The notes: generated by a model not told the origin, from the sequence alone. A stretch of 64,000 bases of DNA from an uncultured Thiodictyon sp. (GCF_903946935.1 NZ_CAJAXH010000014.1:133-64132); one strand, 5' to 3'; numbered from the stretch's first letter, positions 8,299 through 53,114 are shown. Program-made: numbers and translations.

Positions 8299-8469
8299 CC
8301 TAAGCCTGAGCCAGGGAATTACTCACGCCAAGGCGCCAAGCTCGCCAAGAAAGACAATAGGCTATGCGAAGTTACCAGATCATTCGCCGGGTGAATCGCC
8401 AAGCGTCGATAACACACTGAAATTACTTGGCGAGCTTGGCGCCTTGGCGTGACAACTGCTTTTTCTAGG
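8299..8469. mobile_element. CGCCAAG-family MITE-like element, copy 1
   Basis: Core 8323-8452: TCACGCCAAGGCGCCAAGCTCGCCAAG ... CTTGGCGAGCTTGGCGCCTTGGCGTGA, a perfect 27 bp inverted pair; outer ends CCTAA...CTAGG. Confidence 0.8.
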
Positions 8470-8489
8470 ATGATCGACGTCAGGGCGCG

Positions 8490-9296
8490 TCAACTCACTT
8501 CATCCGTCCAAACCCTGAACCCGGTCAGCGTATTGGGGCCGAAGGTGCTGCTGAGTGCCACATCGGCGGCATCCCGGCCGCGGGCGATCAACACCCGACC
8601 GATGCGGGGCACATTGTTGCGGGCGTCGAAGGTATACCATTGACCGCCCAGATAGACATCGAACCAGGCCGAGAAATCCATCGGGCTGTCGGCCGGCGGG
8701 ACGCCGATATCGCCCAGATAGCCGGTGCAGTAACGGGCGGGGATATTCATACAGCGGCAGAAGGTGACGGCAAGGTGTGCGAAATCGCGGCACACCCCGC
8801 GCCGTTCATTGAATACCTCCCAGGCGGTGCGGGTGGCGCGGGCGTGCTCATAGCCGAAGGTGATATGGCGATGCACGAAGTCGCAGATTGCCTGTACCCG
8901 CCCCCAGCCGGTCGGCCCCTTGCCGAACAGGTCCCAGGCGACCTGTGACAGCCGATCGGTCTCGCAATAGCGGCTGCCCAGCAAGAAGACCAGGGTCTCC
9001 TCCGGCAGGTCCTGCACCGCGTGCTGGATCGCCATGGGCACGATGACATCCGGCATCCCCGAATCATTCACCACCGCGTCGGTCGACAGCCGGAACTGAC
9101 CCTTGGGCGCCACGATCCGGCTACACCAATTGCCGAAACCGTCGCGATAGGCGGTGATGGGGACCGATGGCTGGGTGACCAGGTGGTCGGGGACGACCAG
9201 ATCGGACACGCGCGTGAAATGCACGTGCAACGTCAGGATCATCGGCGTCGGCTGGGGACAGTCATAGACCAATTCGTAGCCAACTCGGATCTTCAT
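8490..9296 (-). CDS. Transglutaminase-like family protein
   Basis: MKIRVGYELVY..., FLLGSRYCETD, GVCRDFAHL (Cys), IPARYCTGYLGDI, DFSAWF, WYTFDAR. Confidence 0.9.
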   Translation of the reverse strand: MKIRVGYELVYDCPQPTPMILTLHVHFTRVSDLVVPDHLVTQPSVPITAYRDGFGNWCSRIVAPKGQFRLSTDAVVNDSGMPDVIVPMAIQHAVQDLPEETLVFLLGSRYCETDRLSQVAWDLFGKGPTGWGRVQAICDFVHRHITFGYEHARATRTAWEVFNERRGVCRDFAHLAVTFCRCMNIPARYCTGYLGDIGVPPADSPMDFSAWFDVYLGGQWYTFDARNNVPRIGRVLIARGRDAADVALSSTFGPNTLTGFRVWTDEVS

Positions 9297-9338
9297 AATC
9301 AGTCTCTTGTTGGTGGTCGGCGGCCCCGCGGTCTTGAG

Positions 9339-9502
9339 CCTGACAAGGGCAGTTGTCACGCCAAGACGCCAAGCCGCCAAGATTTTTCAGTGGATTACCG
9401 GTGTTAGCCCATTCCCCCGGCGGATGGTCTGGTGCCTTCGCCTGCCCTATTGCATTTCTTGGCGAGCTTGGCGCCTTGGCGTGAGCAATTGGCTGATCTA
9501 GG
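9339..9502. mobile_element. CGCCAAG-family MITE-like element, copy 2 (inverted relative to copy 1)
   Basis: Core 9356-9484 has the same inverted ends; the internal segment aligns with copy 1 on the minus strand (AAGAAA.CAATAGG...CCAGA...CGCCGGG.GAAT...CACTGAAA). Confidence 0.8.
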
Positions 9503-9503
9503 T

Positions 9504-10538
9504 TCAATGCAGTTGCATCGCCATCGCCATCGCCATCGCCATCGCGATGGCAGCCCGTAAGCTCCCCAGGTCGGCCCGATCGGTGCCGGCCAGGTCGAGC
9601 GCGGTGCCGTGATCCACTGAGGTCCGGATGATCGGCAGCCCGAGGGTGATGTTGACGGCCTGGCCGAACCCCAGGTGTTTGAGTACCGGCAGACCTTGAT
9701 CGTGATACATGGCGAGCACTGCATCCGCAGCGGCCAGACGCTCGTGTACAAAGACGGTATCCGCCGGCAATGGGCCCCGCAGGTCCCAGCCGCGTCCGCG
9801 CAGCCGCTCCAATACCGGTTCGATGATCTCGATCTCCTCGCGCCCCAGGTGTCCGCCTTCCCCGGCGTGGGGGTTGAGTCCGCAGACCAGGATGCGCGGG
9901 GCCGCGATACCGAAGCGCCGCACCAGGTCCTCATGCAGGATCGCGATCACCTGCTCAAGCAGCGGCGCAGTAATCGTCGCGGCGACCTCCTTCAATGGCA
10001 GGTGGGTGGTGACCAGGGCCACCCGCAGGCCCGGCGTAGCGAGCAGCATCACCGGGTGTGCCGTGCAGCGCTCGGCCAGATATTCGGTGTGGCCGGTGAA
10101 CGGCAGACCGGCGTCGTTGACGATGCCCTTATGCACCGGCCCCGTGACCAGTGCGTCGAAGACCCCGGCGCGGGTGCCGTCGCAGGCAATCCGCAGCGTC
10201 TCCAGTACATAGGCCGCATTGGCACGGTCGAGTCGGCCGGGCTGCACCGGTGCGCCCAAAGTCACCGGGAGCACCATCAGAGACCCCGGCGGGTTTGGGC
10301 TTGGCGGACGGTCGGGGGCATACTCTAGGCACCGCAGGGGCAACCCGAGGGCGCGCGCGCGTTCGGTGAGTAAGCCCGGATCGGCTACCGCGACCAACTG
10401 GGCTGCGAGCGGCTCTTGGACCAGTCGCACCAGCAGGTCGGGGCCGATCCCGGCCGGCTCTCCCGGGGTGACCGCGAGCCGCGGCGTGGCCTGGCCGGGT
10501 CCGGCCGTTGGCCACTCAGCGCTTGGTGTCGGCGTCAT
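9504..10538 (-). CDS. pdxA: 4-hydroxythreonine-4-phosphate dehydrogenase
   Basis: [53 protein letters not shown]. Confidence 0.97.
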
Positions 10539-11868
10539 TGGAGCGTATCTGGATATAGGCCTCGTCGCGCAGCCGCTTCGACCAGAGCTGGGCGGCCTCC
10601 TCGCCCTTGCGTCGCTGGATCGCCTCCCGTGCCCGCAGGCGCAGCAGTTCGTCCGCGGTGTCCTGGGTGCGGCGCTCCTGGACCTGCAGAATATGCCAGC
10701 CGAAGGAGGTGTGGAAGGGCTCGCTCACGTCGTTCGGATTGAGCTTGACCATGACTGACTCGAATTCCGGCACCGTATCGCCCGGGCTGACCCAGCCCAG
10801 ATCGCCGCCCTTGAGCGCCGAGCCGGTGTCGTCCGAGTGGGCGCGGGCGAGGGTGGCGAAGTCATCGCCGCCGAGGATGCGCATCCGCAACTGATTGAGC
10901 CGCATCTTGGCGTCGCCATCGGACACCATCTCGTTGGTGCGAATCAGGATGTGGCGCGCCTTGTATTGGGTCACATTGCTCGGTAGCCCGCCCTGGATTT
11001 CTGCCAGGCGAATGATGTTGAAACCGCTGGCGTTGCGGATTGGGTCGGTAATTTCGCCCTTGGCCATGGTTTGCGCCTGGTCCGCGACCAGGCTGGGGAC
11101 CGCGGCCATCTCAAACCATCCCAGGCTCCCGCCCTGCAAGGCGGTGCGCCCATCGGAGTTGGCCGCTGCCACCGCGGCGAAGTCCTCCCCGCCGCGTAGC
11201 CGGGCGACCAGTTGTTTGGCCTTGGCCTCGGCCTGGGCGACCTGGGTCGGGGTGGGTTGATCCGGCAGGGCGATCAGGATGTGCTCCAGGCGCACCTGTT
11301 CGCGGGGTATCAGTTTGCCTTTCTCGCGCTGCAAAAAGCGCTCCACCTCCTGATCCGAGACCTGGATGTTGGCCATGACCTCTTGGCTCTGCAGCCGGCC
11401 CAGGAGGATCTGCATCCGCGTGTCTTCGCGAAAGTCCTGGAAGCGGACATTCCCGTTCTCCAGCGAGGCCTTCAGTTCCTCCACTGACAGGCCATTGCGC
11501 CCCGCGATGGTCTGGATGGCCGCGTTTAGGGCGGCGTCATCGACCGTGATGCCGAGCTGCTTGGCGCGTTGTTGCTGGAGCCGCTTCATGATGAGTCGGT
11601 CGAGCACTTGCTTGCGCAACTGCTCCGGCGGCGGCACCGCCGTGCCCTGCTGTTTGAGTTGGGGCACTGTCAGGTTGATCTCGTTGTTCAAGTCGCTCTG
11701 TACGATCACGTCTTCGTTGACGACCGCGACGATCGAGTCCAGTGCTTCGGTGGCCGCGGCCGGTCGCAGCGCGTACATGCATAAGCACAGCCACAGCAAT
11801 GCGGCGAGGCGCCGCGGCAGCGTCTGCGCGGGGCCGGTCCAGTGCCCGCGGCCTTCAGTTTGAGTCAT
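10516..11868 (-). CDS. surA: Periplasmic chaperone/PPIase SurA
   Basis: Signal peptide, [10 protein letters not shown], two parvulin domains (GGSLGW, GGDLGWV), lptD-surA-pdxA synteny; start codon choice approximate. Confidence 0.93.
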
Positions 11869-23076: not shown

Positions 23077-24993
23077 ATGCTGCAGCAAATTCACGATCGC
23101 GCTAAGGGGTGGTTCGCCTGGCTGATTATCATCATGATCAGTATACCGTTCGCGCTCTGGGGCATTCAGTCCTATATCGGCGGGGGGAGTGAGCCGGTGG
23201 CGGGCCTGGTCAATGGACATGAGATCAGTGAGCGTGAACTCGATCACCGGGTACAGACCGAGCGTATCCAATTGCGCGAGCAAATGGGGGCGGCCTATGA
23301 TCCGGCGCAGTTCGATGACAAGCGCCTGCGCCAGGAGGCGTTGGATGCGATGATCCGAGAGGCCTTGGTGGTCGATGCCGCCAATCGTATGGGTCTGCGG
23401 GTCGCCGACCCGGTGTTACGTGGCCAGATCCTGGCCGAGCCAGCCTTCCAGCAGGATGGGCATTTCGACAACGCGGCATACGAGCAGGCCCTTAAGTATC
23501 AAGGGCTCTCGCCCTCGCAGTTCGAGGCGCAACTGCGCCAGCGCCTGGTCGGCAGCCAACTGGTGCGGGCGGTCGCCGGCAGCGAATTGGTGACCAAGAC
23601 CGAGCGCGAACAATACCAGCGGCTGACCGGCCAACGGCGCGAATTGAGTTGGTTGCGGGTGCCGATCGCCGGGTTCTTGGGCGACGCGCCTATCGATGAT
23701 CAGGCGATCGCCGCCTATTACGAGGCCAATCCCAAGCGCTTTCAGGTCCCGGAACAGGTCAAGCTCGACTATCTGGTCCTCGACGTGGCCGGTCTTGCGG
23801 CCAAGACGAGCGTCTCCGACGAGGATATTCGCCGCGCCTATGAGTCCGATCAGGCCCGTTTTGGTCGGCCCGAGCGGCGCTCAGTCAGGCACATACTGAT
23901 CACCGTGCCCCCGGAGGCCGATGCGGCGGCCAACCAGGCGGCGCTGGCCGAGATTGAAGGGGTCCGCAAGCGCATCGAAGGCGGCGAGGCCTTCGACGCG
24001 GTCGCCAAGGCCGTCTCGAAGGACCCCGGGAGCGCGAGCCAGGGTGGGTCTCTGGGTGAGATCGAAAAGGGCATCTGGGACCCCGCGTTCGAGCAGTCCG
24101 CCTTCAGCTTGCCGGTGGGCCAAATCAGCGAGCCGGTGCGCAGCAAGTTCGGTTATCACCTGATCCAGGTGCAGTCCATCACCCCCGCGGCGGTCAAACC
24201 ACTGGGTGAGGTGCGCGAGCAATTGCGCGGCGAATTGGCCAAGCAAAAGGCCGAGTCACTCTTCTACGATCAGGGTGAGCGCCTGGCCAATCTGGTCTAT
24301 GAGTCCTCCGACAGCCTGGTGCCGGCGGCTCAGGAGCTTGGCATGGAGATCCAGCACAGCGACTGGATCAGTCGCGCGGGCGGCGAGGGCGTGTTGCGAC
24401 AACCCAAGGTGACTGCGGCCGCCTTCAGCGACGAGGTGCTGAACGAGCACCGCAACAGCGACCTGATCGAGCCCGAGAAGGAGGTCTTGCAGTCCGTGGT
24501 GCTGCGCGTGGTTGACCACCGCGAGGCGTCCACCCGGCCACTGGATGAGGTGCGCCCCGAGATCGTCACCGCGTTGCGCAAGGAGCAGGCGCAGCGGGCC
24601 GCGGCGGCGGCGGCGAGCGCCGACGCGGACAAGCTGCGCGGCGGCGCCGACTGGGCGGCGGTCGCCGGTGACGCGAAGGTGGAGGAGGCCGGGCTGGTGG
24701 GCCGCAATGACCCCAAGGTCCCCGCCGCCGTGTTGAGCGTGGCCTTCACCCTGCCGGTCCCGGCGACCGGCTCGGCCAGCGTCGGTACTGCCACCCTGGA
24801 GGACGGTGACGCCGCCGTCGTGCGTGTCACCAAGATTGAGGACGGTGAGGTGAAGCCTGCCGCCAAGCCCGGCACCCCGGACCCGGCGGTGTACATGCTC
24901 GGTCAAATGCTCGGCCGCCACTCCTATGACGCGGTGCTCAACGACATGGAGTCGCGGGCCAAGGTCGAGCGCAAGGCGGCCCCGGCGCGCTGA
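23077..24993 (+). CDS. ppiD: Periplasmic folding chaperone/PPIase D
   Basis: N-terminal membrane anchor (MLQQIHDRAKGWFAWLII...PFALWGI), SurA-N domain, parvulin domain (DPGSASQGGSLG); lon-hupB-ppiD synteny. Confidence 0.92.
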   Translation: MLQQIHDRAKGWFAWLIIIMISIPFALWGIQSYIGGGSEPVAGLVNGHEISERELDHRVQTERIQLREQMGAAYDPAQFDDKRLRQEALDAMIREALVVDAANRMGLRVADPVLRGQILAEPAFQQDGHFDNAAYEQALKYQGLSPSQFEAQLRQRLVGSQLVRAVAGSELVTKTEREQYQRLTGQRRELSWLRVPIAGFLGDAPIDDQAIAAYYEANPKRFQVPEQVKLDYLVLDVAGLAAKTSVSDEDIRRAYESDQARFGRPERRSVRHILITVPPEADAAANQAALAEIEGVRKRIEGGEAFDAVAKAVSKDPGSASQGGSLGEIEKGIWDPAFEQSAFSLPVGQISEPVRSKFGYHLIQVQSITPAAVKPLGEVREQLRGELAKQKAESLFYDQGERLANLVYESSDSLVPAAQELGMEIQHSDWISRAGGEGVLRQPKVTAAAFSDEVLNEHRNSDLIEPEKEVLQSVVLRVVDHREASTRPLDEVRPEIVTALRKEQAQRAAAAAASADADKLRGGADWAAVAGDAKVEEAGLVGRNDPKVPAAVLSVAFTLPVPATGSASVGTATLEDGDAAVVRVTKIEDGEVKPAAKPGTPDPAVYMLGQMLGRHSYDAVLNDMESRAKVERKAAPAR

Positions 24994-24995
24994 TC

Positions 24996-25030
24996 CTTGG
25001 CGAGCTTGGCGCCTTGGCGTGACAACTGCT
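24996..25030. repeat. Solitary right end of the CGCCAAG-family element
   Basis: CTTGGCGAGCTTGGCGCCTTGGCGTGACAACTGCT is identical to the copy-1 right end; no left end nearby. Confidence 0.8.
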
Positions 25031-25058
25031 CTTCATACACTCAAGCACGGACCCCGAC

Positions 25059-27959: not shown

Positions 27960-28019
27960 GTGCGTAGTCAGGCCATCTTGGCCTGACCCCGTCAGGGCTG
28001 GAAGCCCTGACTACGCACA
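27960..28019. repeat. REP-like doublet (GTAG class)
   Basis: GTGCGTAGTCAGG...CCTGACTACGCAC inverted ends enclosing two short hairpins. Confidence 0.6.
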
Positions 28020-31347: not shown

Positions 31348-34300
31348 TCAGGTCTCGGCTGCCGCATTCAGGCCCCGCGTGGCACGCCGGGCCAGCCGGT
31401 CGAAGGCAAGATAGATCACCGGGGTGGTGAAGAGCGTCAGCACCTGGCTCAACAGCAGGCCCCCGACCATCGCCAGCCCCAGGGGCCGGCGCAGTTCGGC
31501 CCCCATCCCGGTGGCAAACATCAGGGGTAGCGCGCTCAGCAGGGCGGCAAAGGTGGTCATCAGGATCGGTCGCAGACGCAGCAGGCAGGCCTGGTAGATC
31601 GCCTCGCGCGGCGTCTTGCCCTCGCGCCGTTCGGCGTCCAGCGCGAAGTCGATCATCATGATCGCATTCTTCTTGACGATGCCGATCAGCAGCACGATAC
31701 CGATGATGGCCACCACCCCCAGGTCCTGGCCGGCGAGCATGAGCGCCAACAAGGCGCCGACCCCGGCCGAGGGCAGGGTCGAGAGGATGGTGATCGGGTG
31801 GATGTAGCTCTCATAGAGCACGCCCAGCACGATATACATGGTCGCGACCGCCGCCAGCAGCAGGAACACCTGATTGCCCAGCGAGGCGCGAAAGGCCAGG
31901 GCCGCGCCCTGAAAGCCGGTCTGCACACTGGCCGGCATCCCAAGCTCCTGCTGGGCCGCCTCGATCGCCGCGACCGCATTGCCGAGCGAGGCACCGGGCG
32001 CCAGGTTGAATGAGATGGTGGCCGCCGGGAACTGGCTCAGGTGGTTGACCACCAAGGGCCCGGCCCGCTCGCTGAAACGGGCGACGACCGCCAGCGGTAC
32101 CTGGACCCCGCCGCTGGTCGGCACATAAATCTGCTTGAGCGCCTCCGGCCCGATCTGGAACCGCGGCTCGACCCCCAGGACCACCCGATACTGATTGGAC
32201 TGGGTGAAGATGGTGGATACCAGCCGCTGACCGAAGGCGTCATAAAGCGCATTGTCGATGGCTGCCACCGTGACGCCCAGCCGCCCGGCCGCCTCGCGGT
32301 CGATGTCGATCGAGGCCCGCAGCCCCTCGCTTTGCAGGTCGCTCGTCACCTCGGTGAGGTCGGGTAGCCGACTCAGCCGCTCCACCAGCCGGCCAACCCA
32401 CAGCCGCAGTTCGGCCGCATCCGCGTCCTGGACCGAGAGCTGATACTGGGTGCGGCTCACGCGGCTCTCGATGGTCAGGTCCTGCACCGGCTGCATATAC
32501 AGCGTCATGCCGGGGACCTCGGCCAGCCTGGGCTGGAGCCGGCGGATGACCGCGGATGCGCTCGGGCGCTGTGCGCGGGGCTTCAGATCGATGAGCAGCC
32601 GGCCGCTGTTGAGCGTGGTGTTGGTGCCGTCCACGCCGATGAAGGAGGATACGCCCGCGACCGCCGGGTCTTGGAGTACCGCCCGCGCCAGCGCCTGCTG
32701 GCGCTCCGCCATCGCCTGGAACGAGATCGACTGCGACGCCTCCGAGATGCCCTGGATCAGGCCGGTGTCCTGGACTGGAAAGAATCCCTTCGGGATGACG
32801 ATATAGAGCACCACCGTCAGCACCAGGGTCGCGACTGCCACCACCAGGGTCGCGCCCTGATGCTCCAGCACCCACCCGAGCATCCGGGCGTAGCCGCGCA
32901 GTATGGCAGCGAAGAACCGGCCGCCGGACGGATGGTCCTGGGAGGAGGAGTTTTCACGCCAAGGCGCCAAGACGCCAAGGGCATTTGCTGTGTCATCAAC
33001 GGCGGGTGATGTATCTGGCGGCTGCTTGGAGGAATCCAGGGATTGCGTTTGCTTTCTTGGCGCCTTGGCGTCTTGGCGTGAGCAATTACCGGCCCCGGGA
33101 GCGGCCGTCGGCCGCTGGCGTAACCACTTGGCGCACAGCATCGGGGTCAGGGTGAGCGAGACGACGGCCGAGATCAGGATCGCGACCGCCAGCGTAATCG
33201 CAAACTCGCGGAACAGCCGCCCCACCACCTCGCCCATGAAGAGCAGCGGGATCAGCACCGCGATCAGCGACAAGGTGAGCGAGATGATGGTGAAGCCGAT
33301 CTGCTCGGCGCCCTTGAGCGCGGCCGTGAGCGGCGGGTCGCCCCGCTCGATATAGCGCGAGATGTTTTCGATCATTACGATGGCGTCGTCCACCACAAAA
33401 CCGGTGGCGATGGTCAGCGCCATCAGGGTCAGATTGTTGATGCTGAACCCGGCCAGATAGATGACGCCGAAGGTGCCCACCAGCGACAGCGGCACCGCGA
33501 TGCTGGGGATGAGGGTCGCCGGGATGCTGCGCAGGAACAGAAAGATCACCAGCACCACCAGGGCCACCGCGAGCATCAGCTCGAACTGCACATCGCGCAC
33601 CGAGGCGCGGATGGTGAGCGTGCGGTCGGTCAGTGCCCGCACCGTCACCGTGGCCGGCAGGGTCGCTTGCAGCTCCGGGAGCAGGTCCTTGATGCGGTCG
33701 ACCACCTCGATCACGTTGGCACCGGGCTGGCGGCGGATATTGACGATCACCGCGGCCGACTCATCCGCCCAGGCCGCCAATCGCTGGTTCTCCGCGCCCT
33801 CTTCCACCGTGGCCAGGGCCGAGAGACGGATCGGCGCACCGTTCTTATAGGCGACGATGAGCGGGCGATAGTCGGCGGCCGAGCCGATCTGGTCATTGGC
33901 GTCGATGGTGGAGGCACGGGTGGGTCCGTCGAAGCCGCCCTTGGGCTGATTCACATTGGCATTGCCCAGTGCCGTGCGCAGGTCCTCCAGCCCCAGCCCA
34001 TAGGATGCGAGCACCCCCGGGTTCACCCGCACCCGCACCGCCGGGCGCTGACCGCCGCTCAGGCTGACCTGGCCGACCCCGGGAAGCTGGGAGATCTTCT
34101 GCGCCAGCCGGGTCTCGGCCAGGTCCTCGACCTGATACAGGGGCATCGTGTCCGAGGTCAGTGCCAGGGTCAGGATCGGGGTGTCCGCCGGATTGACCTT
34201 GCTGTAGATCGGCGGGCTCGGCAGGTCGGTGGGCAGCAGGGTGCCGGCCGCATTGATCCCCGCCTGCACCTCCTGCTCGGCCACGTCGAGGCTGAGATCG

Positions 34301-34590
34301 AGGACGAACTGGAGGGTGATCACCGAGGCCCCGCCGGAGCTGGTGGACGACATCTGATTGAGGCCCGGCATCTGCCCGAACTGACGCTCCAGGGGGGCGG
34401 TGACGGACGAGGTCATCACGTCCGGGCTCGCGCCTGGATAGAGCGTGACCACCTGAATGGTCGGATAATCGACCTCGGGCAGGGCCGAGAGCGGCAGCAG
34501 GTGATAGGCCAGCAGACCGGTGAGAAAGATGGCGACCATCAGCAGCGAGGTCGCCACCGGCCGCTCGATGAATGGGCGGGAGGGGTTCAT
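31348..34590 (-). CDS. mdtB: RND efflux transporter permease MdtB/MuxB, with in-frame repeat-element insertion
   Basis: [68 protein letters not shown]. Confidence 0.93.
32937..33100. mobile_element. CGCCAAG-family element, copy 3, translated in frame inside mdtB
   Basis: Core 32954-33081 with both triple-CGCCAAG ends; reads [12 protein letters not shown]...[12 protein letters not shown] in the MdtB frame. Confidence 0.85.
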
Positions 34591-34754
34591 CCTAAGTCCG
34601 GGAATTGCTCACGCCAAGGCGCCAAGCTCGCCAAGAAAACAGCAAGATAGGCCACGCATCCAGATCGCCTGGCGGGTGAATGGCCCAGCATTGAGAACAC
34701 ACTGAAAAACCTTGGCGAGCTTGGCGCCTTGGCGTGATAACTCTTTTTTCCAGG
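34591..34754. mobile_element. CGCCAAG-family element, copy 4, between mdtA and mdtB
   Basis: Core 34609-34737 with perfect 27 bp inverted ends; outer CCTAAG abuts the mdtB start codon. Confidence 0.85.
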
Positions 34755-34781
34755 TTCATCGGTCGCGTCCGCGCACCGGGC

Positions 34782-36056
34782 TCAAGGCGCGGATCGGCGG
34801 TGACGGCGCTCCGGGGCCGCGGCCTGTCCCGGGGGCGCGTCGGCCGCCGGGCCGGAGGCGGGACCTTTGGCCTGGCCCGCGGCGGGGCCGTCGCGGCTGC
34901 CCAGTTCCACCTTGGCCCCCTCGCGCAGCTTATCGGTGCCGTCTACCACCACCAGCTCGCCGGGCTTGAGCCCGTCCGCCACCGCGGCCAACTCGCCCTC
35001 GGTCGGGCCGAGCTTGACCGGCCGGACGCTGACCCTTTGGTCCGCCCCGACCACATAGACAAAGGTGCCCTGCACCCCGCGCTGGACCGCCGCGGTCGGG
35101 ACCAAGGTGGCGTCGTGCAGTGAGTCGATCAGCAGCCGGACATTGACAAACTGATTGGGAAACAGCGCCCCGTCCTCGTTGGCAAACTCCGCCTTGAGCC
35201 GGATGGTGCCGGTGGTGGGGTCGATCTGGTTGTCCAGGGTGACCAGTTCGCCGCTGGCGAGCTTGGTCGTCTGGTTGCGGTCGTAGACATCCACTGGGGG
35301 CCGCTCGCCCGCGCGGACCTGGCGCAGGATGGCCGAGAGGTTGTCCTCGGGCAGGGTGAAGACCGCCAGGATGGGCTGCATCTGGTTGATGACCACCAGC
35401 CCGGCCGGGTCGGTGGCATGCACGACATTGCCCGCGTCGACCTGGCGCAGGCCCAGCCGCCCGCTGAATGGCGCGGTGATCCGGCAATAGGTGAGTTGGA
35501 GCTTGGCGCTGTCGATCTGCGACTGGTCCGACTTGATCGCCCCTTCGTACTGACCGACCAGAGACTTTTGGGTATCCCATTGCTGCTTGGAGCCCGAGTC
35601 CTGCTGGTAGAGTGTGCGGTAGCGCTCCAGGTCCACCCGCGCATTCTCCAGCAGTGCCTGATCGCGCGCCAGCGCGCCCTGCGCCAGGAGCAGTTGCATT
35701 TGCGAGGGTCGGGGGTCGATCTCGGCCAGCAGGTCGCCCGCCTGGACGTATTGACCCTCCTCAAAGGCGATCCGCATCAGTTGGCCGTCCACCCGGGTGC
35801 GGATCGTCACCGTATTGCGCGGCGTGACCGTGCCGGTGCCGCTCAAGTACACCTGCAAGTCACCGCTGCGCACCGGCTGGGCGACCACCGGCACCGGCCG
35901 CTCCTTGCCACCGCCGCCCGGCCCGCCCTGGCCGCTCGCCACCTCGGCGCCGCCGGGCCAATACAGCCAGGCGAGCACCGCCGCGACGCCGGCCAGGCTG
36001 AGTGCCAACAGTGGCAGATACCGGCGCCGCGGGGCGGCCTTGGGGTCCGAACTCAT
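34782..36056 (-). CDS. mdtA: RND efflux periplasmic adaptor MdtA/MuxA
   Basis: N-terminal membrane anchor, VTIRTRVDGQL, ITAPFSGRLGLRQVDAGN, DNQIDPTTGTIRLKAEF, LFPNQFVNV. Confidence 0.92.
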   Translation of the reverse strand: MSSDPKAAPRRRYLPLLALSLAGVAAVLAWLYWPGGAEVASGQGGPGGGGKERPVPVVAQPVRSGDLQVYLSGTGTVTPRNTVTIRTRVDGQLMRIAFEEGQYVQAGDLLAEIDPRPSQMQLLLAQGALARDQALLENARVDLERYRTLYQQDSGSKQQWDTQKSLVGQYEGAIKSDQSQIDSAKLQLTYCRITAPFSGRLGLRQVDAGNVVHATDPAGLVVINQMQPILAVFTLPEDNLSAILRQVRAGERPPVDVYDRNQTTKLASGELVTLDNQIDPTTGTIRLKAEFANEDGALFPNQFVNVRLLIDSLHDATLVPTAAVQRGVQGTFVYVVGADQRVSVRPVKLGPTEGELAAVADGLKPGELVVVDGTDKLREGAKVELGSRDGPAAGQAKGPASGPAADAPPGQAAAPERRHRRSAP

Positions 36057-38290: not shown

Positions 38291-41147
38291 TCACGCAGCA
38301 GGCAGCAAGGCGCGGCCGAAATATTGATAGAAGGCGTCAGCGGGGTCTTCCACCAGGTTCTCCCACATACCGCGGACCTGCGCTTGGGACGGCGCCTCCG
38401 GCCGGTGGGCGCAGTGGTTACGCAGGTCCAGCATAGCGTTCAGTGCCTTGCCACGCCGTTGACGCACCTCGGACGCGCTCCGCAATAGATGCGCACCGAA
38501 GCGATTCAACAGCAGGCGCTCGATCGGGTCCACGGTCCCGGCGCCATGGTGTAAGGCCCGCTTCAAGGTGATCGCCATGGGTCCCAACATCAGGTGGTCC
38601 CGCTTGCCGTCGAGGAACGCCGCTACCTGGGCGCCCATCCGGTCTTTACCCACGTCCGTTCCCGTGCGCCAGTCCTGGCGCAGCGGCTGGAAGACCTGCT
38701 CCACCAGGGTCCGCTCGAGCGCCAACCCGAGGTTGAGCCCGGCATACCGGGACAGCCATTCATGCTCCAGACAGTGCAGCCCGCAAGCCAGGAAACGCTG
38801 CTCCTGCGCGCCCAGCACCTGGGTCCAGACCGGATCGAGCAGCGCCTGGAGCTGGAGCCGGGCCGCCGCCAGTTCGCCGTCGCACACCGCCTGGCTCGCA
38901 TCCGCCACCGCCCGGTTGAGTGCGGCGGCGATCTTCGCTTCGATGTCCTCGCGCCTGCCCGCGTCGGCGCTGGCCCAGTCCGCGGCATATTGCCTCTGGA
39001 CCTCGACCCAGGCGTGGATCAGCGCCTCGCCAAAACCCTGCCAGCGGATCGGGAGCCCCTGCACCAGGTGCGATGCCATGGTTCGGCTCAACGATTTGAG
39101 GTCTTCCCAGGCCTTGGTCCGCTCCTCCGTGCGGGCCTGGTCAGTAGCCGCGGCGTTCCACTGCTTCAGGGTCGCCAGCCGCTGCGCCGCGAAGGGTTCC
39201 CAAACGGCTTTGAGTTCAGGCTCGAGCCATTTGCGCCAGTCGTTGGTCGCCGCGAGGTCAAGTCCCCGGGCCGGGTTGCCAGCGGCATCCTCGAAGAGCC
39301 CGTTCACAAATGTGACGTCGAGCAACCTCTGCAGCGTGTCGCTGCGCCGCAAGAGGGCCTCGATGTCCATGTCCGAGGACGGCGCGAAGCCCAGGTCGAT
39401 CAGCTCCAGTTTCAGCATCAGGCCCGCCACCTTTGCGACTCGTTGGGCGATATCGGCGCGATCGGCAGCGACCGGCGCCTGCTGGACCAGCACCGCCGCG
39501 GCGCGCTGATAGCTCTCCACCGCCGCCGATGCCGCCTCGCGCCGCACCTGGAACTCGGCCAGGACGAGATAGCCAGCGGGGTCTGAGGGACAGGCCGCCA
39601 CATAGTCGCGCAGCATCGCTTCCGCCTGGGCCGGATCGCCGCGGGTCTCCAGGTCGGCGGCCTGGAGGCGGGCGGACTCGGCGGTGCCGCCGAAATAGAG
39701 TAGGCGCCAGTCGGTCAGGCGCTGCATCATAAGCACCAGCCCCGCGATCCCCTCGGCCGCCAGCCCGGTTTCAACAAGCAGCGCCATCGCCTCGCGTAGC
39801 GCCTCCTGCGCCGCCCAATGCATTGCCGTCGAGGCCGGGGCGCTCCCCGGCTCGGCCGGGTCCAGGTGCTCGCGGATGATCTCGGCGATGAACTGCGGCT
39901 GGCGGGCGGCCAGGTAATATTTGAGGGTCAGATCGAACAGCCGCTCGCGCAGACCGCGCAGGAGATGGACCCCGGCGCGCTCCAGGTCGCGCAGGCGGCC
40001 CAGGCCCTCGTGGGCCGTATCCGCGGCGCTCATGGGGTCGCCCTGCTGCGACAGTGTGATGGCCTTGTTGCCGTAGGCCTTGGCCTCGGTATCGGCGCGT
40101 TCGAGCCAGAGTTCCTCCCCGGGTCGTGCCGTGGCCAGCCCGATCGCCTCGTCACAGGCCTCCACTGCCGCCGCCAGAGTGGCCGCGGTGCCTTGGTCCG
40201 AGAGGGCATTGCCCTTGTTCATGTGGGCCATGGCCAGGCCGTTGCGGTACTCGGCCACGCCGAGGTCGAGCTCTTGCCGCAGCCGGATCGCCTCGTCATA
40301 GGCCGCCACCGCCGCCGCCAGGGTGGCCGGGGTGCCCTGGGCCTGGAGGGCATTGCCCTTGTTCATGTGGGCCATGGCCAGGTCGTTGCGGTACTGGGCC
40401 ACGCTGAGGTCGAGTCCCTGCCCCAGCCGGATCGCCTCGTCGTAGGCCCCCACCGCCGCCGCCAGGGCGGCCGGGGTGCCCTGGGTCTGGAGGGTAAGGC
40501 CCTTGTTGTAGTGGGCCATGGCTAGCAGCCTGTCGGACTTGATGGCGTAACCGATTGATTAAAAAGGAAAACGACTTTTTGGCGCAAAAGAGGAAACTCT
40601 TTGCATTCAATCGGTTGCATCACTAAGTCCGACAGCCTGCTAGGCCGTTGCGGTACTCGGCCACGCCGAGGTCGAGCTCTTGCCGCAGCCGGATCGCCTC
40701 GTCACAGGCCGCCACCGCCGCCGCCAAGGTGGCCGGGGTTCCCTGGGCCGCGAGGACAACGCCCTTGTTCATGTGGGCGTTGGCCAGGTGTTTGCGGTAC
40801 TCGACCACGCCGAGGTCGAGCCCCTGGTACAGGCGTATCGCCTCGTCATAGGCCGCCACCGCCGCCGTCAGAGCGGCCGGGGTGCCCTGGGACTGAAGGG
40901 CATTGCCCTTGTTGAAGTGAGCACTGCCCAGGTCTTTGCGGTACTCGGCCACGCCGATGTCCAGCCCCTGCCATAGCCGGATCGCCTCGTCATAGGCAGC
41001 CACCGCAGCCGCCAGGGCGGCCGGGGTCCGCTGGGCCAGGAGGGCATTGCCCTTCTCGACAAGGTCCGAGCCACGTTGAGTGGGGTCCAGCGGATTGCCC
41101 CAACTACTCGCGCTCGACACCTGCCCGAGGTTATAGCTGATGTCCAT
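38291..41147 (-). pseudogene. TPR-repeat protein with C-terminal HEPN-like domain, interrupted by a 118 bp MITE
   Basis: Six near-identical 48-aa repeats (AHMNKGNALQAQGTPATLAAAVAAYDEAIRLRQELDLGVAEYRN). Removing one CTAG plus the MITE restores a single 912-aa frame (..RNGLAMAHYNKG..). LRNHCAH (RxxxxH) lies near the C-terminus. Confidence 0.8.
40522..40643. mobile_element. 118 bp MITE with CTAG target duplication, copy A
   Basis: CTAG-CAGCCTGTCGGACTT ... AAGTCCGACAGCCTG-CTAG; AT-rich interior. Confidence 0.9.
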
Positions 41148-41443
41148 GATCCGCTCACTCAAACCGCCCCCATCGCCCCATTGCAATTGCGGCAGATTCT
41201 ACCCGCGCCCCCGGCGACGGGGAATCGCTCAGGCCCCGCGATAGACCCGCAATCCCAGGCACCGCTGCATGCCGTGGCGTTGATCATCGCCCCCGTCAGC
41301 GGCGGTCCGTCTACAACCGGAGGTCGAGGCTTCAGCCGGTGGCGGCCCCAGAGGTAGCGAAGGGAAATCAGCGGCGCTTGCACGCCGGACCGCCTAACAG
41401 CCGTGGCCACAAGACCAGTCACCCAGGACGATGAAGGTCCCCC

Positions 41444-41517
41444 GTGGGAGCGGCTTCAGCCGCGACGAGGCCGCTCTGCGGCTTGCGAGGTCGCGTCGCG
41501 GCTGAAGCCGCTCCCAC
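41444..41517. repeat. REPIN-like doublet (GTGG class REP)
   Basis: GTGGGAGCGGCTTCAGCCGCGA ... TCGCGGCTGAAGCCGCTCCCAC. Confidence 0.85.
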
Positions 41518-41666
41518 CGGGCGCCAGCCTGACTTTCTCGGAAAAGCATCGGCATCCGGTGGTGGGAACGCTGATCGCGGCAGCCCCGGTCATGGCGCCA
41601 CCCTTGCGCCTGCCGCCGCGTCGGTCTATGTTCGGCTGATCCGTTCTGCAAGATTGAAAACCGACG

Positions 41667-43810: not shown

Positions 43811-43901
43811 GCCATCGGCGGGCTCGGTGCGGTGCGCCCAGCACCGGTGACACCGTGAAGACGCTGGGCAGGTATCGGTGCGGGGGCAAAGACGCTTGCG
43901 T

Positions 43902-44035
43902 CTGGGAGCGCCGACATTCTGTCGGCCAACCGCCGCAGGCGGTTCGCAGTTTCGAGGTTAATCCCATAGGGCGTTGTTTGCGCGATGACCCAACGGCGCT
44001 GCGCGCCGTGGCCGACAGAATGTCGGCGCTCCCAG
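43902..44035. repeat. REPIN/MITE-like element with 25-27 bp inverted ends
   Basis: CTGGGAGCGCCGACATTCTGTCGGC ... GCCGACAGAATGTCGGCGCTCCCAG. Confidence 0.85.
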
Positions 44036-44112
44036 GCGCCGCCTGACGGCGGTGGGGTGCCTGCGAATACCTCGCCAGTCTCAAAGCGGTGTCGCAAGCC
44101 TATGGTCCTATC

Positions 44113-45198: not shown

Positions 45199-45519
45199 TG
45201 GTTAAATCCCCCTGCATCAAGGTCTGCCGGCTGGACCCCGCGCTCGGCCTATGCCTCGGCTGTTTTCGCACGCGCGACGAAATCGCCGTTTGGCAGCGGG
45301 CGAGCGATGGCGTTAGGCTAGCAGGCTGTCGGACTTAGTGATGCAACCGATTGAATGCAAAGAGTTTCATCTTTTGCGCCAAAAAGTCGTTTTCCTGTTT
45401 AATCAATCGGTTACGCCATCAAGTCCGACAGGCTGCTAGGGATACTGGCCACGGTGGCCCGTCGCCGCGAGGAACACGATCCCTGGCAGGGCGATTTTCG
45501 ATGCGATTGCGAGGACTAA
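45198..45519 (+). pseudogene. DUF1289-family Fe-S/Cys-rich protein interrupted by the 118 bp MITE
   Basis: Removing the MITE gives MVKSPCIKVCRLDPALGLCLGCFRTRDEIAVWQRASDGVRLGILATVARRREEHDPWQGDFRCDCED*. Confidence 0.85.
45318..45439. mobile_element. 118 bp MITE with CTAG target duplication, copy B (inverted relative to A)
   Basis: Reverse complement matches copy A except at about 2 positions; CTAG at 45318-21 and 45436-39. Confidence 0.9.
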
Positions 45520-47965: not shown

Positions 47966-48002
47966 CTGGCGCGTCTTACCTTGCAAGTCAGCCCGGCACC
48001 CG

Positions 48003-48124
48003 GTGGGAGCGGCTTCAGCCGCGACGCGATCTCACAAGCTGCCGTGGCCTCGTCGCGGCTGAAGCCGCTCCCACGGGGGGACTTTCATCGTTCGCTGCCG
48101 TAGGAGCGGCCCCCAGGCCGCGAC
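48003..48124. repeat. REPIN-like doublet plus GTAG-class REP
   Basis: GTGGGAGCGGCTTCAGCCGCGA...TCGCGGCTGAAGCCGCTCCCAC (48003-48074); CGTAGGAGCGGCCCCCAGGCCGCGAC (48099-48124), identical to 38120-38145. Confidence 0.85.
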
Positions 48125-48178
48125 CGGTTGCACGAGGGCGCGGGGCCGCAGCGACGACCAAGGACAAACCGGGCCGAC

Positions 48179-49826: not shown

Positions 49827-49995
49827 ACAGGCCAAAAGCCCTTGGCCTTGGTCATCATTGTGGTCCCCGGCACTCCCGGCGCGGAGCGCCTGACACCGGC
49901 GTGACACCGCTGGAGCGGTGTCGCGAGGGCGAGCGGTGTCGCGGACGCGGGCTTGTGCTATCCATCATAACCGCTCTTGAGCAATGGGTGGGGCA

Positions 49996-50871
49996 ATGCA
50001 CTGGCTACCACTGTCGCTGATCTGCGCGCTGAGCCTCGCGAGTGCGGACGCTGCCACCAAGGCATGGCTGCAAGGATTCTCCGCGCGTGAATTGGCGGTC
50101 GTGCGGTTCGGCCTGACCGGGCTGCTCATGACCCCGCTGCTCGCGGGTTTGCCATCCCTGACCGCCCTGCCGGTGCAATTCTGGTGGACCCTGGCCGTGC
50201 TGGTGCCGTTGGAGGTCCTGGCCATACTGCTCTATATGGCGGCGATCCGCGACCATCCGCTCTCGCTCACCCTGCCTTATCTCGCATTCACCCCGGTCTT
50301 CGTGATCGGTATTGCCTGGGTGCTGCTGGGAGAGCGGGTCAGTGCCAGGGGCGCGGTCGGGGTGCTATTGGTGGTGGCCGGGGCCTGGCTGCTCAATGGC
50401 GACCAGGCGCGGGCGCTTGACTGGCGCACTTGGGGGCGGCCATTGCGGGCCATCCTCTATGAGCGGGGCTCGCGGATGATGCTCGCGGTGGCGCTCATCT
50501 ATGCCCTGACCGCCACCCTGGGCAAAGGGGCCATGCGCTATCTGGGGCCTGAGCGGTTCGGGCCCTTCTATTTCGGGGCGCTGGGTCTTGCGGTCATCCT
50601 GGTCTTCGCCGTGCCGCGCCCACGACTCCTGCTCAAACTCGCCTCGCGGCCCCTGCCGGTGCTGGCAGTCGCGGCGCTCAGCGGCATGATGGCCTATACC
50701 CATTTTCTCGCCATCCAGCAGGTCGAGGTGGCCTACATGATCGCGGTCAAGCGCACCAGTCTGCTCTTCGGTATCCTCTATGGCGTCCTGTGGTTCAAAG
50801 AACGGGGGCTCCTGCGGCGTCTGCCGGCCGGGGGGCTGATGGTGGCCGGGGTGGTCTTGATACTGATTTGA
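49996..50871 (+). CDS. EamA/DMT family transporter
   Basis: About 10 hydrophobic helices in two repeats; LSLTLPYLAFTPVF, LLGERVS, YMIAVKRTS. Confidence 0.85.
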   Translation: MHWLPLSLICALSLASADAATKAWLQGFSARELAVVRFGLTGLLMTPLLAGLPSLTALPVQFWWTLAVLVPLEVLAILLYMAAIRDHPLSLTLPYLAFTPVFVIGIAWVLLGERVSARGAVGVLLVVAGAWLLNGDQARALDWRTWGRPLRAILYERGSRMMLAVALIYALTATLGKGAMRYLGPERFGPFYFGALGLAVILVFAVPRPRLLLKLASRPLPVLAVAALSGMMAYTHFLAIQQVEVAYMIAVKRTSLLFGILYGVLWFKERGLLRRLPAGGLMVAGVVLILI

Positions 50872-51026
50872 TGGTGTCGGCGGCGGCTGGCCGTTCCCCC
50901 ACCCCGCCCGCCCCCACGAGGGGGGGAGGGAGAGTTGGAGCGCGCTCCCGGCGCGACTTTCACGGTAAGCTGCACCTTCGCCATGGTGCCGGGTCATCGG
51001 CGTCCCTACAATGAAGAGGCTGTGCA

Positions 51027-52079
51027 TTGAACGAGCAAGACACCTCAGGCGCGTGGCGCCTGATCCGCCCCCTGGCCTTTCGGCTCGATGCCGAACTGAC
51101 CCACCGGCTCACCCTGGCACTGCTGGCGCGTTGGTCGGCCGTGTTCGCTGGGCGGTTGCCGGCCACGGACCCGGCGCGTCGCGCGGACCTGGGGCGCCGG
51201 TTGATGGGGCTCACCTTTCCCAATCCCATCGGGCTGGCCGCCGGACTCGACAAGGAGGCGGCGGCGGTCCCGGTCTGGCAGCGGCTGGGCTTCGGCTTCA
51301 TTGAGGTGGGTACAGTCACCGCGCTGCCCCAGCCCGGGAACCCGCGCCCGCGGCTCTTTCGCCTGCCGGTCGATGGCGCCATCGTCAATCGTATGGGCTT
51401 CAACAACGGTGGCGCGGCGGCCATGCAGGTGCGCCTCACACGGCTGCGTGAGCGTGAGGTGTTGCAGGTGCCGCTTGGCGTGAACCTGGGTAAGTCGAAG
51501 GTGACCCCGGCGGCGGCGGCGGCGGCCGACTATCGGGCGAGCTTTGAGCGCCTGGGCGCACTGGCGGACTATGTGGTGGTCAATATCTCCAGCCCGAATA
51601 CCCCGGGTCTACGTGACCTCCAGACGGTGGATGAGGTGCAGCGTATCGTCGACGCCATCCAGGTACCCAATCAGCGCCTGGCGCAGCCCCGGCCGCTGTT
51701 GTTGAAGCTGGCGCCGGACCTCGCCGACAGCGATGCCATCGACTGTGCCCGGGCGGCGCTGGAGGCGGGCTGTGCTGGGCTCATCCTCACCAATACCACG
51801 ATCCGCTTTGCTGGACTCAAAAGCCCCACCGAGGGTCTGAGCGGCGGGCTCTCGGGTCGGCCGTTGTTCGCGCGCAGTACCCAATTGCTGAAGACTGTGC
51901 GCGAGGCGCTGGGCGCTGGGCCGGTGCTGATCGGGGTGGGCGGGGTCATGGACGCCGCGGGGGCGCGGGCCAAGCTTGCCGCCGGGGCCGACCTGGTGCA
52001 GGTCTATACCGGGCTCATCTATGGGGGGGCGGGGTGGGTGCGGCGACTGCTGCGGGGGTTGGAGTCGCCGCCGGGCTAG
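51027..52079 (+). CDS. pyrD: Quinone-dependent dihydroorotate dehydrogenase (class 2)
   Basis: NPIGLAAGLDK, GNPRPRLFRL, NRMGFNN, NISSPNTPGLR, KLAPDL, GGLSG. Confidence 0.95.
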   Translation: MNEQDTSGAWRLIRPLAFRLDAELTHRLTLALLARWSAVFAGRLPATDPARRADLGRRLMGLTFPNPIGLAAGLDKEAAAVPVWQRLGFGFIEVGTVTALPQPGNPRPRLFRLPVDGAIVNRMGFNNGGAAAMQVRLTRLREREVLQVPLGVNLGKSKVTPAAAAAADYRASFERLGALADYVVVNISSPNTPGLRDLQTVDEVQRIVDAIQVPNQRLAQPRPLLLKLAPDLADSDAIDCARAALEAGCAGLILTNTTIRFAGLKSPTEGLSGGLSGRPLFARSTQLLKTVREALGAGPVLIGVGGVMDAAGARAKLAAGADLVQVYTGLIYGGAGWVRRLLRGLESPPG

Positions 52080-52132
52080 TCATCCATCTGCGACCGTCCA
52101 TGCTCTGCCAGGATGTCGGTCGCCGGTGTGCC

Positions 52133-52573
52133 TCAGTCGTTGCCTTCCCCCTGGCGACCGCTGCGGTTGAGTGAGGGGTAGGGGAAGCGCACATGGCCGA
52201 AGCGGACCACCAACACCGCCACCGCGAGGATGAGTACGGCGAAGGCGGAGGAGGCGATGCCCCATTCGGTCATCTCCTTCATATCCAGGATGATGTGCCG
52301 GGCGAGTGCCACCATGGCAATGTAGAGCGGGATGCGCACGGGCAGGGCGCCGGAATCCAGATAGACCGCCACCATGGAGAGTACTTCGAGATAGATGAAG
52401 AGCAGCAGCAGATCGGCCAGGGCGACCTCGCCCCGCCCGGCCATCGCAAACATCTCCTGAACGCTGGCGATCAGGGTCGCGATGGCGATCACCGCCAGAA
52501 AGACCACCTCAAGCCCGCCGAGTATGCGGCCTGAAATGGTGAGGACACGGGGATTGAGTTCTGTTTTTGACAT
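52133..52573 (-). CDS. Phosphate-starvation-inducible PsiE-family membrane protein
   Basis: DLLLLFIYLEVLSMV, LPVRIPLYIAMVALARHIIL. Confidence 0.85.
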   Translation of the reverse strand: MSKTELNPRVLTISGRILGGLEVVFLAVIAIATLIASVQEMFAMAGRGEVALADLLLLFIYLEVLSMVAVYLDSGALPVRIPLYIAMVALARHIILDMKEMTEWGIASSAFAVLILAVAVLVVRFGHVRFPYPSLNRSGRQGEGND

Positions 52574-52651
52574 GGGCCTAAATCATATCCGAAGGCCGCC
52601 GGAGCGGCCAGGGGCGGGCCCACCGGGGGCCTTGTGTTCGCGCGGGGGCGC

Positions 52652-52924
52652 TCAACCGACTGGCGGGACATAGCCCTCCGGCAGGTCGGCCCCGTCGCCG
52701 AAAAAGTAGCGCTCCATCTGCTCTTCCAGGAACTTGCGGGCCTTTGGGTCCATCGGGCTCAAGCGGTTTTCGTTGATCAGCATGGTCTGATGGCGTAGCC
52801 ACTGCGCCCACGCCGGCTTGGAGACCTGCTCGAAGATGCGCTTGCCCAATTCGCCCGGGTAGGGCTGGCGGTCCAGTCCCTCGGCCTCCTGGCCGAGCTT
52901 GATGCAGTGAACGGTGTGGCTCAT
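52652..52924 (-). CDS. yggX: Fe(II)-trafficking/oxidative damage protection protein YggX
   Basis: [37 protein letters not shown]; mutY-yggX synteny. Confidence 0.95.
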
Positions 52925-52948
52925 TTCGGTTCTCAACCTCAGCAGGAT

Positions 52949-53114
52949 ACTAGAAGAAGCGTTTGTTTCACGCCAAGGCGCCAAGCTCGCCAAGTTTTTC
53001 GGTGCGTTATCGGCGGCGGGTCGTTGACTCGGTGGGCGATCGGGTTTCTTTGCCTAGCCTATTGTATTTCTTGGCGAGCTTGGCGCCTTGGCGTGAGTCA
53101 TTTCTGGGTTTAGG
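52949..53114. mobile_element. CGCCAAG-family element, copy 5, between mutY and yggX
   Basis: Core 52968-53096 with perfect 27 bp inverted ends. Confidence 0.85.

Follow-up and report, generated by a model that had tools for sequence, protein, structure and literature searches.

Non-coding elements with triple-heptad hairpin arms and 5-bp target duplications in Thiodictyon share their arms with GxxExxY gene cassettes

A 64,000-nucleotide stretch of DNA from an uncultured Thiodictyon sp. (GCF_903946935.1, NZ_CAJAXH010000014.1:133-64132; here called the window) carries a family of short elements whose two arms each hold three tandem copies of the heptad CGCCAAG, one arm being the inverted form of the other. 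These elements are very probably miniature inverted-repeat transposable elements (MITEs) of the Chromatiaceae, the purple sulfur bacteria to which the window belongs; a duplication of 5 bp of target is demonstrated for them, and their movement is ongoing or recent. Because their arms are common to cassettes that carry small genes of the GxxExxY protein family, the window elements likely belong to a class of triple-heptad cassettes that would span phyla. On balance, we lean towards a combined reading, drawn from sequence comparison, in which this cross-phylum class of hairpin cassettes encodes GxxExxY, the GxxExxY nuclease mobilises its members, and RNase III cuts the stem.

Results

Target duplications, nested insertions and differing sites indicate movement

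Target duplications were sought in 39 distinct copies of the element. The five nucleotides outside the left end of each copy were sought outside its right end, and as a control the left flanks were paired with the right flanks of other copies. An exact 5-bp flanking duplication was found in 12 of the 39 copies; in 5000 permutations the mean was 1.1, and none gave more than 6. The duplicated 5-mers (ATTAA, ATTAC, ATGAA, CTGAT, CTTCA, ATGAC, TTGAG, TGGAA, TTCAT, TTGAC, TTCAG and TTCAT) mostly fit the pattern NTNAN. Two further loci show the element inserted into other repeats. At locus L180, a repetitive extragenic palindrome (REP) hairpin, of a kind also present in the window, is split by an element with duplication of TTCAG, reading GGGAGCGGCTTCAG before the element and TTCAGCCGCGACG after it. 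At locus L147, a CGCCAAG element is nested in a sister element with CACAAAG arms, and its flanks read ATCAT and ATCAC where intact sister elements read GATCACC.

The window itself holds the following members of the family and one perfect target-site duplication:

8299-8469, plus strand: full copy 1 (core hairpin 8323-8452; profile E 6.6e-42)
9339-9502, minus strand: full copy 2 (core 9356-9484; profile E 4.2e-35)
24993-25035, plus strand: partial copy (profile positions 119-160, E 5.4e-10)
32937-33099, minus strand: full copy 3, the most diverged (profile match; in frame inside mdtB, 31348-34590, minus strand)
34586-34590, no strand assigned: target-site duplication TTCAT, left copy (its complement includes the mdtB ATG)
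34591-34754, plus strand: full copy 4 (arms 100% complementary; profile E 3.7e-41)
34755-34759, no strand assigned: target-site duplication TTCAT, right copy, beside copy 4
52951-53114, minus strand: full copy 5 (core 52968-53096, arms 100% complementary; profile E 1.8e-32)

Two of these copies lie at mdtB. Copy 4 sits between the mdtA stop (34782-34784) and the mdtB start, and the mdtB start codon comes from the left copy of its TTCAT duplication: insertion hit the mdtB ATG, and the duplication gave the gene its start codon back. Copy 3 lies within mdtB in sense orientation, in the cytoplasmic linker between the two halves of this resistance-nodulation-division (RND) pump. MdtB of the window aligned to E. 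coli MdtB (9lyq_B) over 2-493 and 557-1068, with 63 residues in place of the 12 of the E. coli protein, so that the insert adds about 51-56 residues, including ...LGVLAPWRE...; an element of 163 bp and a duplication of 5 bp together make 168 bp, i.e., 56 codons. None of 120 homologues (52-65% identity) carries this insert. Insertions land next to or in genes, and the in-frame insertion in mdtB is tolerated.

A relative recovered from metagenome data (L132), whose genes are 84-89% identical to those of the window, differs from it at three element sites. It lacks the elements that in the window flank a gene for a 268-aa protein on both sides, and upstream of trpE it has a CGCCAAG half element at the intergenic site where the window has a different element (6470-6676). 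An empty allele was not seen in the Logan contigs of the source metagenomes, in which contigs break at the arms. At the position of window copy 1, between trpE and the 268-aa gene, L132 has a segment of ~970 bp (7914-8886) with an unidentified open reading frame (ORF).

An earlier reading of the window, made from its sequence alone, had taken the elements for a mobile repeat system; that they are non-coding, multi-copy and mobile is borne out by the 5-bp duplications, by copies that interrupt a REP, a sister element and mdtB, and by the empty or different sites in L132. Static copies would have counted against that reading; the copies are not static, since sites differ in the relative and nested insertions are present.

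Copies and their sites in the window

The window contains the word CGCCAAG 58 times, whereas shuffles that preserve dinucleotides contain it 16.9 +/- 4.2 times (26 at most). Of the 58 occurrences, 33 are within the six places named by the sequence-only reading. An inverted-repeat scan found core arms that are 92-100% complementary and 70-76 nt apart at 8323-8452, 32954-33081, 34609-34737 and 52968-53096; for the core at 9356-9484 it detected a 19-nt stretch, 95% complementary, with 91 nt between the detected stretches. A family profile (nhmmer) was then made from 30 elements, two of them window copies. Applied to the window, it recovered exactly five full copies and one partial copy, with match spans at 8305-8469 and 34591-34754 (plus strand), 9340-9502, 52951-53114 and 32937-33095 (minus strand), and 24993-25035 (plus strand). 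The profile was a step that the sequence-only reading had proposed, and it confirms that reading's count of five full copies and one half copy.

The copies mostly adjoin gene boundaries. Copy 1 lies between the stop of trpE (8294) on one side and, convergent with it, the stop of the 268-aa protein gene (8490) on the other; its left end is ambiguous, being either CCTAAG at 8299 or CCTGAG at 8305. The 268-aa protein is transglutaminase-like by a reading of its sequence only, with no NCBIfam match at E<=1e-10. Copy 2 lies one base past the stop codon of pdxA (9504-9506) and 43 nt upstream of where the 268-aa gene starts (9296), and its flanking 5-mers, TTGAG and TTCAA, are alike at 3 of 5 positions. 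Just before this element, within the 3' end of pdxA, is a hexanucleotide repeat, (CATCGC)x5 at 9516-9545, whose minus strand would encode an Ala-Met repeat tail. Copy 5 lies at the 3' end of mutY (53110-54276, minus strand), with the mutY stop codon in the first bases of the element (CCTAA). The partial copy comes directly after the ppiD stop (24991-24993) and consists of a right arm, CTTGGCGAGCTTGGCGCCTTGGCGTGA, and a truncated outer end, ACAACTGCTCTT. The description of the elements as abutting stop or start codons therefore stands for trpE, pdxA, ppiD, mutY and the mdtB start, and fails for the copy at 32954, which lies in frame within mdtB. Relative to copy 1, the copies at 9356, 32954 and 52968 are reversed; relative to transcription, the copy at 34591 is antisense to mdtAB and the copy at 9339 is sense.

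Anatomy of the element and its predicted hairpin

In an alignment of 39-40 distinct copies, conservation extends ~19 nt beyond each arm and then drops to background. From left to right, the element consists of an 18-nt outer end (CCTRAATCCGGNAATTGC), a left heptad block (TCACGCCAAG-GCGCCAAG-CTCGCCAAG), a spacer of ~76 nt, a right heptad block (CTTGGCGAG-CTTGGCGC-CTTGGCGTGA) and a right outer end (GAACTGCTCTTTCCAGG) that finishes ...CCAGG. The heptads are three tandem CGCCAAG per arm at a spacing of 8-9 nt, and the two ends form an imperfect terminal inverted repeat of ~45 nt, with the pattern CCTGRAA..CA.TT.C-TCACGCCAAGGCGCCAAGCTCGCCAAG on both sides (ends of the window-type element in short form: CCTGAATCCGGCAATTGC). 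The usual length is 163-165 bp, with a range of 163-171 bp. The outer ends that had been proposed as CCTAR...YYAGG are thus real element ends (CCTRA...CCAGG), with the 5-bp target duplication just outside them. No ORF runs across the copies, and the elements are non-coding.

Further spacer size classes are 48-56, 83-85, 137, 189, 222-252 and 347 nt, some with nested repeats. Two loci (L154, 380-820, and L194) show a window-type element with a 347-nt spacer that holds nested triple-repeat hairpins (TCTCACGGAGACACGGAGACAC...GTGTCTCCGTGTCTCCGTGAGAGA) and a REP-like palindrome.

Fold prediction gives a 27-bp stem between the two heptad blocks when the element is single-stranded, whether DNA or RNA; the predicted free energy is -74.9 kcal/mol for RNA (copy 1; z -7.0) and -47.3 for DNA (z -7.9). 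RNAalifold on 40 copies predicted the arms only, and the spacer showed no conserved RNA structure. One CG to AU compensatory pair is present within type A arms, and in some copies the stem is trailed by a T-rich stretch (CTGCTTTTTC). Rfam 15 has no family that matches the element at gathering score (best E 0.23, to an unrelated small RNA), and the matches at gathering score within the window are three tRNAs only, with no rRNA.

The family is abundant in the source community and its relatives

The same arms, with a homologous spacer (72-83% identity), are present in Thiodictyon and Lamprocystis genomes; one window gene is 76% identical at the DNA level to Lamprocystis purpurea, and the window sequence is present in metagenome runs from ponds and lakes, with no match found among RNA runs. 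At least 120 loci came from scanning metagenome contigs for the exact arm. In the source pond metagenome, arm words are ~4000-7600 deep whereas unique flanks are ~30 deep (100-250 times), and from this depth there are at least a hundred copies of the element in the source community. A collection of plasmids yielded one weak arm match, on a Thiodictyon syntrophicum plasmid, and three GxxExxY genes, none of them in Chromatiaceae.

At five loci in which a CGCCAAG arm is followed directly by repeats resembling clustered regularly interspaced short palindromic repeats (L119, 11100-12340; L146, L188, L195 and L196), the repeats read CTTCAATGAGGCCGCGGCGAATTCGCCGCGGAAAC and are separated by spacers of ~37 nt; in L119 the arm and two such repeats recur every ~570 nt.

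Five arm variants change together behind the same outer ends

Other triple repeats, namely TCACACAAAGACACAAAGAACACAAAG, TCACGCAAAGACGCCAAGAACGCAAAG and GTCCGCGAAAAACGCGAAAAACGCGAAAT, are also found with these outer ends and with a spacer that can still be recognised as related. In all, five heptad variants were found (CGCCAAG, CACAAAG, CGCAAAG, CGCGAAA and CGCAAAT), each keeping the three-unit tandem form, and C1, C3, A6 and G7 of the heptad recur in most of them. Left and right arms of one type match with scores of 20-23; between types the scores range over 4-21, most of them lying at 4-17 and those of the D and E arm types against each other at 14-21. Because the arms always change together, the ability to pair as a hairpin is what is conserved, and it is the complementarity of the stem, rather than a fixed heptad sequence, that is maintained across the five variants. 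The sequence-only reading had taken the conserved ends for protein-binding iterons; as stated this is unsupported, since the heptads differ between variants with common outer ends and the two arms co-change, although a protein may still bind the arms.

A related seventh element, absent from the earlier list, lies between the stop of a phosphoglycolate phosphatase gene (6468) and trpE:

6470-6676, no strand assigned: sister element (three CGCAAAT units per arm, 10-nt period, 94% complementary; spacer 128 nt)

Its right outer flank (CAACTATTTTTCGCGGG) resembles that of the family and its left outer end is unlike it; the family profile gives no match to this element.

The same arms flank GxxExxY genes in several phyla

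Scanning for triple-heptad arms in one genome per species gave at least 93 loci, and the phyla among the 93 listed arm loci are Verrucomicrobia, Planctomycetes, Acidobacteria, Chloroflexi, Bacteroidota and Alpha-, Gamma- and Deltaproteobacteria. GxxExxY genes adjoin the arms in at least 6 of these 93, including a Methylobacter (Gammaproteobacteria). The arrangement is clearest in a metagenome-assembled genome of Verrucomicrobia (L025), in which the left arm runs directly into the ATG of a 125-aa GxxExxY protein (TIGR04256, 6.5e-42; PF13366, 2.6e-42) and the frame continues through the right arm. Beside this gene are three to four tandem units without an ORF. What they retain of it is its initial 10 nt and its final ~45 nt, so these units are internal-deletion derivatives of the GxxExxY gene. 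At the same locus in other samples (L216-L225), the distance from GxxExxY to the next gene is 93 or 241 nt, a difference of one tandem ORF-less unit, which may be copy-number variation or an assembly effect.

The common form of the arms is TCA-(CRCNNAG)x3 ... (CTNNGYG)x3-TGA, and the window arms have it. At the GxxExxY genes of L025, L066 and L214 the arms are the same as in the window, and those of L237 differ from the window arms by one base in each heptad. The association is also visible in the proteins, in which 84 of the 120 nearest GxxExxY clusters terminate in translated arm (LGVLASWRE or LGVLA*). In 68 of them the ending is ...L[GC]V[LF]AS[WL]RE, the translation of CTTGGCGTCTTGGCGTCTTGGCGTGAG, and in 16 it is LGVLA with the TGA of the arm as stop codon. 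Among 150 diverse GxxExxY representatives, heads and tails derived from arms are common (SHAKPQ..., SRQDA..., HRGTEGTEDTE, ...SASPRLRVN). Some representatives (P0242, P0243, P0248, P0249 and others) are 270-295 aa long with two matched domains; they are either genuine tandem fusions or the result of reading through two cassettes. Cultured bacteria carry such cassettes as well. In Sphingomonas parapaucimobilis, a cassette with CGCGAAG arms lies between fabD and fabG, at a site that is empty in S. paeninsulae; in Bernardetia, the arms of the cassette are CACAGAG/CTCTGTG.

The GxxExxY family comprises 25,971 clusters at 50% identity (E <= 0.001), and the PD-(D/E)XK residues D67, E77 and K79 are conserved in the protein. 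Its function (TIGR04256 / PF13366 PDDEXK_3) is listed as unknown (PMC3424549). An AlphaFold model from a shallow alignment was poor (predicted local distance difference test, pLDDT, 65, with the C-terminal 40 residues below 50), and with it a Foldseek search of the PDB returned only noise; a sequence search of the PDB with GxxExxY gave no match. In a literature search that covered subscription journals thinly, we found no paper on the arm sequence, the Chromatiaceae family, the mobility of GxxExxY or the function of PF13366, or the association of GxxExxY with arms, although database curators may have noted this association.

A gene of another family was considered as cargo and not counted: in three loci (L126, 565-1100; L095; L211), a DUF29 (PF01724) gene begins 29 nt after a CACAAAG-type left end but is not itself followed by a right arm, an arrangement that could be cargo or coincidence.

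Discussion

A GxxExxY nuclease as candidate mobilising enzyme

As the sequence-only reading had noted, there is no transposase in the window, and for this reason mobilisation in trans is a sensible reading. We propose that the elements are moved in this way and that the trans-acting enzyme would most likely be the GxxExxY PD-(D/E)XK nuclease (~125 aa). The class would be recognised by its TCA-(CRCNNAG)x3 ends, with its ORF-bearing members encoding GxxExxY. Transcripts that cross an element would probably be cleaved in the stem by RNase III, by analogy with an intervening sequence (IVS) found in the 23S rRNA of Coxiella, and such cleavage would release the ORF of a cassette from the transcripts of the host and reduce the harm done to it. 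The parts of this proposal differ in strength. That GxxExxY moves the window-type element itself is put forward tentatively, as a candidate suggested by the common arms. The widest form, in which GxxExxY cassettes would be undescribed minimal autonomous mobile elements in most phyla, the S23p IVS and the window elements their relatives or derivatives, and the hairpin both nuclease site and RNase III excision signal, making insertions into operons, rRNA and coding frames tolerable, is conceivable and, in our judgement, rather doubtful.

Several results weigh against assigning the enzyme in this way. A six-frame profile search found no GxxExxY gene in the window or in the Chromatiaceae loci (within 1.65 Mb of collected loci, of which 120 were picked by the window-type arm), and a metagenome scan for a window-type arm followed by a GPGLLE coding sequence found none. 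At the GxxExxY cassettes examined in other phyla, we did not see the 18-nt outer ends that the Chromatiaceae elements have, no target duplication was demonstrated for any ORF-bearing cassette, and nucleases of the PD-(D/E)XK type are not known to perform strand transfer unaided. The arms are 88-91% alike between copies as compared to 60% for the spacer, but this contrast is inflated, since the copies were gathered by their arms. A likeness by eye of IIRRVN / ITRRVN in the spacer to GIxRVVN of the GxxExxY coding end was rejected as a remnant: when the spacer consensus was locally aligned to the initial 45 nt and the final 60 nt of each of three cassettes, p was 0.3-0.9 relative to shuffles, and there was no profile hit.

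Alternative explanations

The alternative that survives best is that the elements are MITEs derived from, and moved by, an insertion sequence (IS) of the IS1380 type, whose DDE transposase would act on the outer ends; the triple-heptad hairpin would then be an internal module without a role in transposition, e.g., an RNA-processing or insulating stem. Members of IS1380 have CC ends and make 4-5-bp duplications, and the window family has CCTRA ends and a 5-bp duplication. Its outer terminus, CCTAGAT / CCTAAAT / CCTGAAT, resembles the left end of the IS1380-like element ISEcp1 (CCTAGATTCTACG), which lies ~150 nt upstream of the ISEcp1 transposase gene, and five heptad blocks behind the same outer ends are what would be expected of an enzyme that reads the outer ends only. 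The likeness to ISEcp1 is however limited to 7 nt at the extreme end, and no described IS-derived MITE matched the family; by the sequence-only reading, such a match would have counted against its proposal. In the search for a donor, tblastn with the ISEcp1 transposase found nothing in the window or in the 1.65 Mb of collected loci, none of 44 outer-end occurrences in these loci leads into a long ORF-bearing element, and no transposase family recurs among the ORFs on the inner side of 93 solo arms. Where the outer ends occur without CGCCAAG arms, what follows them is a sister arm type and no IS. This explanation also leaves unaccounted for the heptad arms around GxxExxY genes, which occur in phyla with different outer ends. 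We regard it as a serious rival that is nonetheless unlikely.

That the elements are not mobile at all, and are hairpins selected by the host as terminators, mRNA stabilisers or processing sites and spread by recombination, is very improbable. Their placement at gene ends and between cistrons, and a very stable stem with a T-rich stretch after it in some copies, would suit such a role. It is the target duplications, the nested insertions and the insertion in a coding frame that speak against it, together with the occurrence of both orientations relative to transcription, the want of conserved RNA structure in the spacer and the lack of an Rfam family. A secondary regulatory effect on neighbouring genes is possible.

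There is next to no prospect that the elements are REP/REPIN-type palindromes spread by a RAYT (IS200/IS605-like Y1) transposase: although they too are short, intergenic, hairpin-forming and high in copy number, and ordinary REP hairpins also occur within the window, window-type elements duplicate 5 bp on insertion, carry terminal inverted repeats of 45 nt with a 76-nt spacer between them, include one copy inserted into a REP, and have no RAYT or recurrent Y1 transposase inward of their arms. REPINs are not known to duplicate their target.

Other repeats in the window

The REP-like palindromes of the window (GGGAGCGGCTTCAGCCGCGACG) are paired hairpins at 41440-41521, 47999-48078, 54404-54481 and 57981-58048; they are a separate repeat family, and this family is one insertion target of the CGCCAAG element (L180). 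An inverted-repeat element of ~120 bp (CTAGCAGCCTGTCGGACTT...TCAATCGGTT...) has two copies in opposite orientations, at 40522-40643 and 45318-45439. Long palindromes are present at 43898-44039 and 27960-28018: one has 31-nt arms, 97% complementary and 80 nt apart, and the other has 28-nt arms 3 nt apart, in a region with a 90% match to locus L060.

Significance

If GxxExxY acts as proposed, PF13366/TIGR04256, with ~26,000 clusters (50% identity), gains a testable candidate function, and its candidate substrate would be its own flanking triple-heptad hairpin. The 23S rRNA IVS would be connected to a general class of hairpin cassettes in ordinary intergenic DNA, and the idea of IVS mobility would become directly testable. 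For annotation, the elements create false N- and C-terminal extensions (SRQDAKTPR..., ...LGVLASWRE) and fuse or lengthen ORFs; they can sit in frame in real genes, as in mdtB, and break metagenome assemblies at their arms. Should the enzyme instead prove to be a conventional DDE transposase, what remains is a new family of MITEs, unusual for its subterminal, co-varying hairpin.

Comparison with known systems

Compared to IS1380 (ISEcp1), the window family has a similar terminus (CCTAGAT/CCTRAAT) and a 5-bp duplication, but only 7 nt are in common, and IS1380 ends have no triple-heptad block. Rickettsia palindromic elements likewise lie in frame in a gene that stays open, as the copy at 32937-33099 does in mdtB; however, only one of the five full window copies lies within a gene, and the likeness is one of description.

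Bacterial MITEs such as Correia/NEMIS, RUP and Nezha are similarly small and non-coding, with terminal inverted repeats, a short duplication and a high copy number, and they too are placed at gene boundaries and can form a long hairpin in transcripts. The window family is unlike them in having three tandem heptads per terminal repeat and at least five co-varying arm variants with one outer terminus. It also differs in that no parent IS with a standard transposase was found for it and that its inner arms are common to GxxExxY cassettes.

In the 23S rRNA IVS of Coxiella burnetii, three tandem heptamers (GACAGAT) lie directly before the S23p ORF, their number varies between strains, and RNase III cuts at the first repeat; an old proposal sees in the IVS a mobile element, with an ORF that would act in its mobility (PMC4990558). 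The IVSs of Coxiella and Leptospira that encode S23p (a four-helix-bundle protein, PF05635) have in common with GxxExxY cassettes a triple-heptad stem around a small ORF. The window elements, in contrast, lie outside rRNA (intergenic or in mdtB), contain no ORF, have CGCCAAG rather than GACAGAT, and possess outer terminal repeats and a 5-bp target duplication.

GxxExxY cassettes differ from the window copies, which have no ORF or recognisable remnant of one and which carry outer ends specific to Chromatiaceae. The two are alike in their arms, which are identical or nearly so (TCA-CGCCAAG x3 ... CTTGGCG x3-TGA), in occupying intergenic sites in housekeeping operons and in forming tandem clusters, and in L025 the cassettes have ORF-less derivatives beside them.

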